Assembly (NCBI RefSeq): GCF_057098645.1
Contig: NZ_CM169472.1
DNA length: 64,000 nt
Reading direction: 5' to 3' (one strand)
The notes under the pieces were generated by a model. That model saw nothing but the letters and a program-made list of their open reading frames with translations, did not search any database and was not told the origin of the DNA. Shown one piece after another: positions 2,492 to 5,531 of this stretch. Made by a program: the position numbers and the translations under genes. How positions within the stretch are numbered: the stretch's first letter is position 1; each line of letters begins with the position of its first letter.

Positions 2492-2838
2492 TTTATTGTT
2501 GCCTGTTTAATATTTTTACAAATATCGCAGTTGAATGTTCAAAGAAAAAGAATTGATATTAATAAAAATAAGTTTGTTTTCTGAAGTAGTGAAAATAGCG
2601 GATGGTGAAAGATATTAATATCAAAAATCGCTCATTGTGGATATAACGATGCAGCAGGGGAGAAAATGACTTCCACGCCTTACACCGTACATTCTTGTTG
2701 TGCGGTATGTAATTATTCTACGCTGTCGGTATTGGTGTATTCGTTAATCAGCAGGTTAACCAGCCACAAAAAGCCATTGAGAAAATTATTGATTTTACAT
2801 GGAATTATTATATTGCCAATCCTTGTTTTTTAAAAATT

Positions 2839-3057
2839 GTGCATAGTGAAAATCAAAGTAAAGGTGTGCATTATGCAAAATCACAGCGTCTCTTAGAAAT
2901 TACCCATGCGCACTTGCAGTTAATGGAATCCTTATTGGATGAAGGGAAGAAACACAATATTTTTAAGCCAGATATCGACCCATTTCAGGTGAATATTAAT
3001 ATTGCTGCGCTTGGGGGATATTATTTGATCAACCAGCATACGCTTGGCCTGGTTTAT
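2839..3057 (+). pseudogene. ytfA: ytfA 5' segment (TetR-like C-terminal-domain fragment) interrupted by IS200/IS605 element
   Basis: ORF starts with GTG at 2839; reading frame runs into IS left end; joining 2839..3057 to 4802..4909 restores an uninterrupted 108-codon ORF. Confidence 0.6.
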
Positions 3058-3114
3058 CCGGTGCGCCGTAAAACCCCGTCCTTCAGGGCGGGGATATACG
3101 GCGCGGTTTTCCAC

Positions 3115-3527
3115 CTAACCAGGTGTTTGCTGTTGTTCAATGTATTGACGGATGGCGGATATTGGCGCACCTCCGCAGCTACTGGCAAAATAGCCAGGAC
3201 TCCACAAAACGCCTTTGTAGTAATACCTGACTGCAATATCTGGTCGATCTCGTCGCAGTAACCTACCCGATACGCCTTTGAGGCTGTTTACCAGACTGGA
3301 TATCGCCAGTTTGGGAGGATAGTTAATTAACAAACGTGATCTGGTTCGCCATCCATTTCAACCAGTTCAGCTTCAAAATCAGCACATACCTTTGAAAAGT
3401 AAGTGCGTAGTTTTTCTGTCGCGTCATGGTCAAAAATCTGGCGTCGGTATCTGGTGACAAAGACCAGGTGAACATGCATCAGGAAAACACAATGCCTTCC
3501 ACGCCGGATATCGGTTTCTTTTTTCAC
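3115..3527 (-). pseudogene. tnpA: IS200/IS605 Y1 (HuH) transposase TnpA, frameshifted
   Basis: N-terminal frame (3327..3527) has HVHLVFVTRYRR and ends at EPDHV-stop; C-terminal frame (3115..3333) continues LINYPPKLAISS...LWSPGYF...IRQYIEQQ; frames offset by one nucleotide inside the HuH motif. Confidence 0.75.
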
Positions 3528-3549
3528 AGACCAAAATATAATTTGACCC

Positions 3550-4758
3550 GTGAAACGACTACAGGCATTTAAATTCCAGTTAAGACCCGGTGGTCAACAG
3601 GAGCGTGAAATGAGGCGCTTCGCAGGCGCATGTCGTTTCGTTTTCAATCGTGCTCTGGCGCTTCAGAATGAGAATCATGAGGCCGGTAATAAATACATCC
3701 CTTACGGGAAAATGGCTTCCTGGCTGGTTGAGTGGAAAAATGCCACTGAAACGCAATGGCTTAAAGATGCCCCGTCACAGCCATTGCAACAGTCACTGAA
3801 AGACCTTGAGCGGGCTTACAAAAACTTCTTCCGGAAGCGGGCTGCTTTTCCCCGATTCAAAAAGCGGGGACAGAATGATGCATTCCGCTACCCGCAGGGC
3901 GTTAAGCTCGATCAGGAAAACAGCCGTATTTTTCTGCCGAAACTTGGCTGGATGCGCTACCGGAATAGCCGTCAGGTCACGGGTGTTGTGAAAAATGTCA
4001 CTGTCAGCCAGTCCTGCGGTAAGTGGTACATCAGTATTCAGACTGAAAATGAAGTATCAACTCCGGTTCACCCTTCAGCATTAATGGTCGGACTGGATGC
4101 TGGCGTGGCTAAACTCGCCACGCTGTCAGATGGCACAGTCTTTGGGCCTGTAAACAGTTTTCAGAAAAACCAGAAGACGCTGGCGAGACTTCAGCGACAG
4201 TTAAGCCGCAAGGTCAAATTCAGCAACAACTGGCAGAAGCAGAAACGCAAAATACAGCGACTGCATTCCCGTATCGCAAATATCCGCAGGGACTACCTTC
4301 ATAAAGTCACAACGACCGTCAGCAAAAACCACGCAATGATAGTCATTGAGGATTTGAAGGTCAGCAACATGTCAAAGTCAGCAGCGGGTACGGTCAGCCA
4401 GCCGGGGCGCAATGTCCGGGCAAAATCAGGTTTAAACCGTTCGATACTGGATCAGGGCTGGTATGAAATGCGCCGCCAGCTTGAGTACAAGCAGCTCTGG
4501 CGTGGCGGTCAGGTGCTTGCTGTTCCGCCAGCGTACACAAGCCAGCGTTGCGCGTGCTGTGGTCATACAGCGAAAGAAAATCGCCTGTCACAAAGTAAAT
4601 TCAGATGCCAGGCATGTGGATATACAGCGAACGCTGATGTAAATGGCGCTCGTAACATTTTAGCGGCGGGGCACGCCGTTCTTGCCTGTGGAGAGATGGT
4701 GCAGTCAGGCCGCCCGTTGAAGCAGGAACCCACCGAAATGATTCAGGCGACAGCCTGA
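3550..4758 (+). CDS. tnpB: IS200/IS605 accessory protein TnpB (RuvC-like RNA-guided endonuclease)
   Basis: 402-aa ORF (GTG start); RuvC-I GLDAG (D183), RuvC-II IVIEDL (E267), zinc finger CACCGH...CQACG, Ruv[13 protein letters not shown] (D363) all present. Confidence 0.9.
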
Positions 4759-4817
4759 ACGTAGCAGGGATCCACGTCCTTCAGGGCGTGGAGGATGTCA
4801 ACACATCAGTATGGTTT
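4650..4817 (+). ncRNA. predicted TnpB omega-RNA (right-end element RNA): scaffold overlapping tnpB 3' end and RE hairpin, plus about 16-nt guide from the right flank
   Basis: Inference from family architecture: intact tnpB, RE hairpin 4772..4791, IS end at about 4801; guide would be 4802..4817 (cacatcagtatggttt). 5' boundary is a guess. Confidence 0.35.
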
Positions 4818-4909
4818 CACCCCAGGCACTGGAAGCCAGACGTAAGGTCATCAAAGAGACAATCCTTAGCTGGCTTTTGGTTGACCCGTCATCTACCGCG
4901 CACGAATAA
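4802..4909 (+). pseudogene. ytfA: ytfA 3' segment displaced by the IS insertion
   Basis: 35 codons then TAA at 4907..4909, in frame with 2839..3057 once the IS is removed. Confidence 0.45.
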
Positions 4910-5531
4910 AACTGCCATCCGGCTGGCGGGTGAACAGGACCTGTTGATTATTCCCCGTATCAATGGTTAAGCCCGTCACCACGCCGCTGGCGTTCTGGCG
5001 GATTTTCACCATCTGCCCGTTTTGCAAATTACTCAGCGGCTTACCCGCGCCTTCTACCTGCGCCATTGCATAGACATCGGTAGCGGGCAGTCCGTGGTCG
5101 CGGAACAGCTGCGCCATCGTTTTACCGGGTTCGACACGGTAAGAGCGCCATTGATTATCAATTCCGCTATCTGGCTGGAATGGTTGTGTTTGGGTAGTTT
5201 GCGGCTGCTCTTCTGGCTGGCCTTCCTGTATAGGTTCTGGAGCGACCGGAGCCACCTGATCAGGATCATTTTGTGGTGTGACTAATTGCGCCCGCAGCTG
5301 TTCTTCTGTCGGCGGTTGTGATTGTGACTGAATATCTAACTGCGCTTCACGCGTCACCACCGGCGCGTTGGGCGTATCATCAGATGGAAGCAGAAATCCG
5401 ACCACCAATACAATGGCGGCAATAATGATCCCCCGACGATGCATCGGCGGCAGCGGGTCCATGAAGCGAAAATTGTCCGGCGCGTGCCAGACTTTCTCCA
5501 GGGTTGGTTTTAGTTCAAAGCGCCCGGGCAT
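4893..5531 (-). CDS. ytfB: cell-division-associated OapA-domain protein YtfB
   Basis: ORF 4893..5567; start placed at the internal Met giving 212 aa; Pro/Gln-rich linker and C-terminal OapA/LysM-like region. Confidence 0.82.

Follow-up and report, generated by a model that had tools for sequence, protein, structure and literature searches.

The tnpA gene of the IS609 copy inserted in ytfA carries a 4-bp deletion at the codons of its HUH metal-binding motif, and we hold with high confidence that the deletion is an ordinary loss-of-function mutation of a resident element, passed down within a lineage. The window analysed is a stretch of 64,000 nucleotides (contig NZ_CM169472.1 of assembly GCF_057098645.1), within which a 1781-base segment containing the element matches the chromosome of E. 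coli O145 RM9872 at 100% identity. The lesion is described by the following features:

3115..3542, minus strand: tnpA pseudogene (Y1 HUH transposase), frameshifted; the coordinates are exactly those of RefSeq for RM9872, and the region aligns with the 432-bp O157:H7 gene
3327..3527, minus strand: N-terminal fragment of tnpA, with a GTG start and the end EPDHVC-TAA, containing His69 only (ORF list; Y1_Tnp 1-53)
3115..3333, minus strand: C-terminal fragment of tnpA in the -1 (= +2) frame, (L)LINYPP..., with the catalytic Tyr135 (Y1_Tnp 55-121)
3333..3335, no strand: junction of the 4-bp deletion (alignment; position ambiguous by one base)

RefSeq describes this region of RM9872 (window 3115-3542) as 'tnpA, IS200/IS605 family transposase, frameshifted'; the frameshift is already on record in public annotation and is ordinary gene decay of a known kind. 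The ORF at 3327..3527 translates as MKKETDIRRGRHCVFLMHVHLVFVTRYRRQIFDHDATEKLRTYFSKVCADFEAELVEMDGEPDHVC-stop, and the translation of the ORF at 3115..3333, which overlaps the N-terminal ORF one base back, opens with (M)LINYPPKLAISS. Both fragments match the Pfam profile Y1_Tnp (PF01797), at 53.4 and 69.1 bits against a cut-off of 23. Exactly one profile position is absent between the two matches (1-53, then 55-121), and the fragments are therefore halves of one gene. An earlier note on this DNA had described two overlapping frames with the C-terminal part in the -1 frame, which is correct; it had also ended the N-terminal frame at EPDHV-stop, whereas the frame actually ends at EPDHVC-stop.

Pairwise alignment with the orthologue of O157:H7 ATCC 43890, an uninterrupted gene for 143 aa annotated as 'IS200/IS605-like element IS609 family transposase', shows a sole indel, at the HUH codons, and defines it as a 4-bp deletion with its junction at 3333-3335. 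The O157:H7 sequence GAT CAC GTC CAT TTG TTA becomes GAT CAC G----TT TGT TAA in the window. The bases missing are TCCA or CCAT in tnpA sense (TGGA or ATGG on the plus strand); the undeleted allele is GTCCATTTG, and the window reads GATCACG|TTTG. As a fixed feature of the sequence, the deletion raises no question of chance. Val70 is kept, His71 is changed to Cys, and a TAA stop follows, placing EPDHVC-stop where the intact frame has EPDHVHLLINYPP. The intact O157:H7 protein reads ...GEPDHVHLLINYPP... around the motif (...MDGEPDHVHLLINYPP... over a longer stretch), and thus contains PDHVHLLI, as the earlier note had predicted for the family.

The window tnpA no longer encodes an HUH motif with two histidines (H69-V70-H71), having D-H-V-C-stop as compared to D-H-V-H-L-L. 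Nor are the motif and the catalytic tyrosine part of one polypeptide: the Tyr135 codon (RQYIEQQ) lies past the stop, in the -1 frame. A structure search with the intact or repaired TnpA matched 2ec2, 2a6m and 2xm3, structures of the IS608, ISDra2 and Sulfolobus TnpA proteins, with E values of about 1e-17 to 1e-20 (7e-19 for 2a6m and 2e-17 for 2xm3). In the alignment with IS608 TnpA (2a6m), HVH pairs with DHIHIL, and RQYIEQQ pairs with VKQYIENQQ, the holder of the catalytic Tyr. In IS608 TnpA the aligned residues are H64/H66, which bind the metal in the HUH motif, and Tyr127, which is catalytic. Together, the O157:H7 and IS608 TnpA alignments bear out the earlier statement that tnpA is split exactly in the HUH motif with loss of its second histidine.

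If these residues act as the HUH and Tyr residues of IS608 and ISDra2 TnpA do, transposase activity would be lost as follows: the deletion removes the codon of His71, the second metal ligand of H69-V70-H71, and shifts the frame; a stop two codons on prevents synthesis of the C-terminal half with Tyr135; and, with the Y1 transposase gone, the plus strand would be neither excised nor re-inserted at TTAT|LE and RE|flank. With the second histidine gone and Tyr135 out of frame, the element would lack a transposase supply of its own, as had been proposed. The start of the gene is also changed. The annotated ATG is ATT in the window copy, a state private to the O145 copy among six aligned, and a GTG five codons downstream of the lost ATG could be an alternative start.

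A single window cannot exclude that the missing 4 bp reflect an error of sequencing or assembly in a gene that is really intact, a concern that the earlier note had itself raised. A 381-bp probe made of ytfA flank and deletion matched 60 complete genomes, with 99.5-100% identity over exactly 381 bases, and a 61-bp probe across the deletion returned the same genome set. Eighteen of the 60 are named O145, and two are assemblies of RM9872 (CP028379, CP024659); the published O145:H28 genomes RM13514 and RM12581 have the deletion too, as do unrelated isolates from ducks, pigs, humans and water. The same deletion with the same flanks at ytfA has therefore been read in many laboratories and from many hosts, and TCCA is not a homopolymer, the usual site of long-read indel errors. 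It is this recurrence in independent assemblies, the two of RM9872 included, that rules out a sequencing error, for which we see almost no chance. As a clean lineage marker common to O145:H28 and about 40 other genomes, the deletion has modest value.

Two further proposals would restore a functional TnpA despite a genuine deletion. Programmed -1 ribosomal frameshifting could bridge the split, given that the ORF for the C-terminal part is in the -1 frame and shares bases with the N-terminal one; such frameshifting is common in other IS families, and an IS3 transposase annotated in this way was among our matches. However, a slippery heptamer of the form X XXY YYZ is absent from the overlap (CAC GTT TGT TAA), orthologues with an intact gene have one ORF rather than a two-ORF arrangement, and the annotated ATG start has become ATT. 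Moreover, a -1 slip at the overlap would yield ...PDHV-LLINYPP..., from which His71 is still absent, so that frameshifting here, which the earlier note had listed as grounds for withdrawing its claim, would not have rescued the motif. We reject it as exceedingly improbable. Alternatively, both half-proteins could be made, the one ending ...HVC and the other a TTG-started rest, and could reassemble as an active enzyme in which Cys71 replaces His71. The cysteine of the N-terminal ORF does sit exactly at the place of His71, and a TTG-initiated ORF covers the remainder. Against this, evidence of ribosome binding for the internal TTG is absent, and the break falls inside DHVHLLIN, the segment aligned with IS608 TnpA. 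Cysteine is a poor ligand for the Mg2+ or Mn2+ used by HUH enzymes, and we know of no precedent. Reassembly is thus a very remote prospect, and inherited loss of function is the reading carried forward below.

The element, its ends and its insertion site comprise:

3058..4801, plus strand: IS609 (IS200/IS605 family), 1744 bp here and 1748 bp in intact copies
3054..3057, plus strand: target or TAM-like TTAT, abutting the left end on its 5' side; the target is not duplicated
3074..3093, plus strand: left-end (LE) subterminal imperfect hairpin CCCCGTCC-TTCA-GGGCGGGG, predicted from the sequence and conserved in all copies
4772..4791, plus strand: right-end (RE) subterminal hairpin CCACGTCC-TTCA-GGGCGTGG, predicted from the sequence
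2764..3057 (wider: 2666-3057), plus strand: upstream fragment of the TetR-family pseudogene ytfA (PGAP 'TetR/AcrR ... missing N-terminus and C-terminus'; Pfam TetR_C_29)
4802..4909, plus strand: downstream fragment of ytfA (PGAP)

The boundaries were set by joining 2858-3057 to 4802-5001 in an artificial junction and matching it against 5426 genomes. This empty-site junction was found as one ungapped 400/400 piece in 3283 of the 5426, and IS609 therefore occupies 3058-4801, with the plus strand as its top (active) strand. The empty-site match and the PGAP fragments on both sides place the element in ytfA, in agreement with the earlier note. The ends, CCGGTGCGCC... and ...GGAGGATGTCAA, are common to copies at four different loci (ytfA, ydcL-ydcO, yedK and gltX-yfeD), each arranged as ...TTAT|CCGGTGCG...GGATGTCAA| with unrelated flanks and no duplication, and the empty ytfA site reads TTTAT|CACATCAG. 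Between the left cleavage site and its hairpin lie 16 nt; the right cleavage falls 10 nt past its hairpin, after 4801. IS609 thus has the hallmarks of the IS200/IS605 family: subterminal hairpins on the same strand, a lack of terminal inverted repeats, a fixed tetranucleotide and a scarless empty site. The genes tnpA (minus) and tnpB (plus) are divergent, with start codons 7 bp apart. To judge from the sequence, the hairpins and cleavage sites at both ends are intact, and the element would be mobilisable if a compatible TnpA arrived. In the O157:H7 copy, whose tnpA is intact, the stem of the RE hairpin has a G-to-T change (window position 4788; 4753 of the extracted O157:H7 locus) that no other copy has; this 'intact' IS609 may be impaired at its right end.

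In genomes that lack the IS, as at 1407-1808 of an extracted locus, ytfA is annotated as a pseudogene whose N-terminal (DNA-binding) part is missing. IS609 therefore interrupted an already dead gene, and the insertion costs nothing. IS609 with an intact tnpA occupies ytfA in O157:H7, O55:H7 CB9615 and 55989, and an exact-protein look-up of the intact TnpA returned the ytfA context only. Approximately 1,780 genomes are without a contiguous empty ytfA site, and only 60 carry the deletion. The ytfA insertion predates the 4-bp deletion. This reverses the earlier proposal that the frameshift 'fixes' the element in ytfA: the insertion is the older event and is equally present elsewhere with an intact tnpA.

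A second IS609 copy, located by a 48-mer that matches the undeleted allele only, lies between gltX and yfeD on the RM9872 chromosome (3080655-3082401; 3747-5493 of the extracted locus). A 1-bp deletion of independent origin frameshifts its tnpA near codon 30; tnpB is intact there, encoding 402 aa with 14 residues different from the window TnpB. At ydcL-ydcO and yedK, no IS609 was found in RM9872, both sites being empty. Trans-complementation by a second chromosomal copy is ruled out, as the sole other copy is itself frameshifted in tnpA. There is no IS609 TnpA available in trans from the chromosome, a statement that concerns chromosomal IS609 copies as distinct from plasmids and distant IS200/IS605 transposases. 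With both chromosomal tnpA copies frameshifted independently, the window element could move in this host only if a compatible TnpA were imported. In RM9872 the order yncE-ydcO-tehA-paa at 1.90-1.95 Mb is opposite to that of K-12, whereas the ytfA region is oriented as in K-12, which implies that a large segment around the terminus is inverted in the O145 chromosome.

Among the IS609 copies examined, decay of tnpA is widespread, with six of eight disabled, each differently, the lesions being the 4-bp deletion, the 1-bp deletion, two different internal stops, an added 17-bp deletion and an IS3 truncation. The 402-aa tnpB ORF is kept in all nine copies examined, with pairwise dN/dS values of 0.14-0.58 that are based on few substitutions.

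The 4-bp deletion is not confined to ytfA. It is also present in the ydcL-ydcO copy of four genomes (for example ECNB21-M121, 2322-2743 of the extracted locus) and in the yedK copy of PapRG-04-4 (3833-4243 of the extracted locus). All five genomes carry the deletion at ytfA as well. In ECNB21-M121 the ydcO copy is mosaic, its SNPs being of the ytfA type around the deletion and of the ydcO type in the rest. This points to movement of the null tnpA allele between IS609 copies by intragenomic gene conversion, although the four genomes with the ydcO case may belong to a single clone. Recurrent mutation at a hotspot is less likely than gene conversion, in view of the deletion at ytfA in all five genomes, the SNP mosaic and the lack of flanking repeats of more than one base.

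Downstream of tnpA, the remaining features of the element and the adjoining flank are:

3550..4758, plus strand: tnpB (InsQ/TnpB RNA-guided endonuclease), intact, 402 aa (Pfam; alignment to ISDra2 TnpB)
4631..4801, plus strand: presumed omega-RNA scaffold (3' end of tnpB plus right end), boundaries approximate (sub-threshold Rfam matches; fold z-score)
4802..4817, plus strand: flank serving as the presumed omega-RNA guide, CACATCAGTATGGTTT, equal to the sequence after TTTAT in the empty ytfA allele
3536..3549, no strand: substitution cluster at 3536, 3540, 3546 and 3549, of which 3536, 3540 and 3549 are found only in the O145 copy among six aligned

RefSeq annotates the gene downstream of tnpA as an intact 'RNA-guided endonuclease InsQ/TnpB family protein'. 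The domains HTH_OrfB_IS605, OrfB_IS605 (RuvC) and Cas12f1-like_TNB all score above their Pfam cut-offs. The protein aligns with ISDra2 TnpB (8bf8/8exa) with an E value of 5e-55, placing D183/E267/D363 on D191/E278/D361, and the zinc-finger cysteines are present (C334/C337 and C353/C356). Over the 3' end of tnpB and the right end (4631-4814, plus strand), Rfam gives HgcC, sot0042 and RAGATH-18, all below their gathering scores; the HgcC match (4695-4814) has an E value of 0.0096 and 23.5 bits against a gathering score of 50. HgcC and sot0042 are linked to TnpB-associated guide RNAs. The fold z-score of the region is a modest -2.57. An omega-RNA is likely encoded at the tnpB 3' end and RE, and its presumed position is that found in characterised TnpB elements (PMC8612924). 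By analogy with the family mechanism (10.1101/2023.03.14.532601), the flank at 4802..4817 would act as its guide.

The substitution cluster changes the tnpA ATG to ATT and creates TATAAT and TTGACC hexamers on the plus strand. It also abolishes a 7-bp hairpin (GCCTGT...ACAGGC) that is predicted over the tnpB GTG start in O157:H7. A new promoter arising from these O145-private SNPs was considered and rejected, as a consensus scan found no sigma-70-like promoter at 3536-3549 in either allele.

With ends, tnpB and presumed omega-RNA region intact, loss of tnpA would leave a non-autonomous, tnpB-only element, the state in which IS605-family elements most often occur. We infer that some TnpB/omega-RNA activity may persist, and it is plausible, as the earlier note held, that this is the only functional module left. 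The pattern in IS609 matches published work. Most tnpB genes sit in elements that have no working tnpA, and autonomous elements tend to degrade (10.1101/2023.03.14.532601). Transposition of IS609 was absent in K-12 mutation-accumulation lines (PMC5009759).

One alternative would assign selection a part in this decay: inactivation of tnpA would be favoured because it stabilises a selfish or host-beneficial tnpB/omega-RNA module, and gene conversion would then spread the null allele. The contrast between tnpB, intact in every copy with dN/dS well below 1, and tnpA, dead in most copies through independent lesions, is what this view would anticipate, as are the copying of the deletion into ydcL-ydcO and yedK, the SNPs of both copy types in the converted ydcO copy, and the exact match of the guide-forming flank to the empty ytfA allele of 3283 genomes. 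Against this view, dN/dS values of 0.2-0.4 are weak evidence when each pair has only 3-30 substitutions, nine copies are a small sample for comparing the decay of a 432-bp gene with that of a 1209-bp gene, and gene conversion is expected between repeats that are 97-99% identical whatever the selection, with possible clonality further reducing the four ydcO cases. Favoured inactivation is, in our assessment, unlikely.

A related and rather improbable idea is that TnpB with its omega-RNA (CACATCAGTATGGTTT as guide, next to TTAT) cuts the empty ytfA allele, amounting to transposase-independent allele drive or addiction through which tnpA-dead copies might persist as more than inert relics. If true, the occasion for cutting would be an empty allele that enters by conjugation or transduction or that replaces an occupied one, and the target would be the empty ytfA allele of about 60% of E. 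coli genomes. Such drive would explain purifying selection on tnpB, repeated decay of tnpA and the spread of the null allele by gene conversion. Inherited loss of function in tnpA remains the preferred reading.

The closest known system is the O157:H7 ytfA copy (TnpA WP_000604943.1, TnpB WP_000826430.1), which has the same locus, the same ends and 99.1% nucleotide identity, and which shares the divergent tnpA/tnpB, the TTAT target and the lack of duplication. As compared to it, the window copy is without the 4 bp in the HUH codons, has ATT for ATG and retains the consensus RE hairpin. IS608 and ISDra2 share the TnpA fold family with aligned HUH and Tyr, the IS608-type layout of hairpins and cleavage sites, and (ISDra2) a homologous TnpB. 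They differ in the divergent tnpA/tnpB of IS609, in the inactivated tnpA of the window copy and in target, which is TTAT for IS609, TTAC for IS608 and TTGAT for ISDra2. The K-12 copy at ydcL-ydcO (insQ, with a defective tnpA/insP) is the same IS, likewise with a defective tnpA and an intact tnpB, but its site and lesions are different. For the ydcL-ydcO comparison, the ydcO copy of ECCNB20-2 was read, and its tnpA contains an internal stop.

Elements of the tnpB-only IS605/IS1341 type represent the same outcome, with ends, tnpB and a presumed omega-RNA without a working transposase, and this is the majority state of tnpB genes (10.1101/2023.03.14.532601). In contrast to such elements, the window retains a tnpA remnant of almost full length, which marks the transition as recent and leaves its cause legible at single-base resolution. 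Taken alone, the lesion is of little importance, being a pseudogene flagged by RefSeq in a well-known IS and following a well-described pattern of losing tnpA and keeping tnpB. A search for a published study of the 4-bp deletion found none, and the 'IS609' literature search gave routine mobile-element listings. Nonetheless, the O145 chromosome makes a clear worked example, each of its two IS609 copies combining an independent frameshift in tnpA with an intact tnpB, and O145 offers a natural background for asking if E. coli TnpB/omega-RNA acts once the transposase is gone.

IS609 sequence also occurs on phages and plasmids. A full-length copy, 97.4% identical, lies in Morganella phage IME1369_01, and the P1-like phage-plasmids RCS47 and SJ46 have tnpB-only partial copies (71% of the element, 94-95% identical) beside ddrA; phages therefore carry IS609 from genus to genus. 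Over its first 37 bases (3058-3094), which include the hairpin, the element is 97% identical to unannotated DNA of the lambdoid phages HK97 and HK106, and a 42-base match to the left end is also found on a plasmid. These matches could be remnants consisting of a left end alone, or a hairpin repeat related to it.
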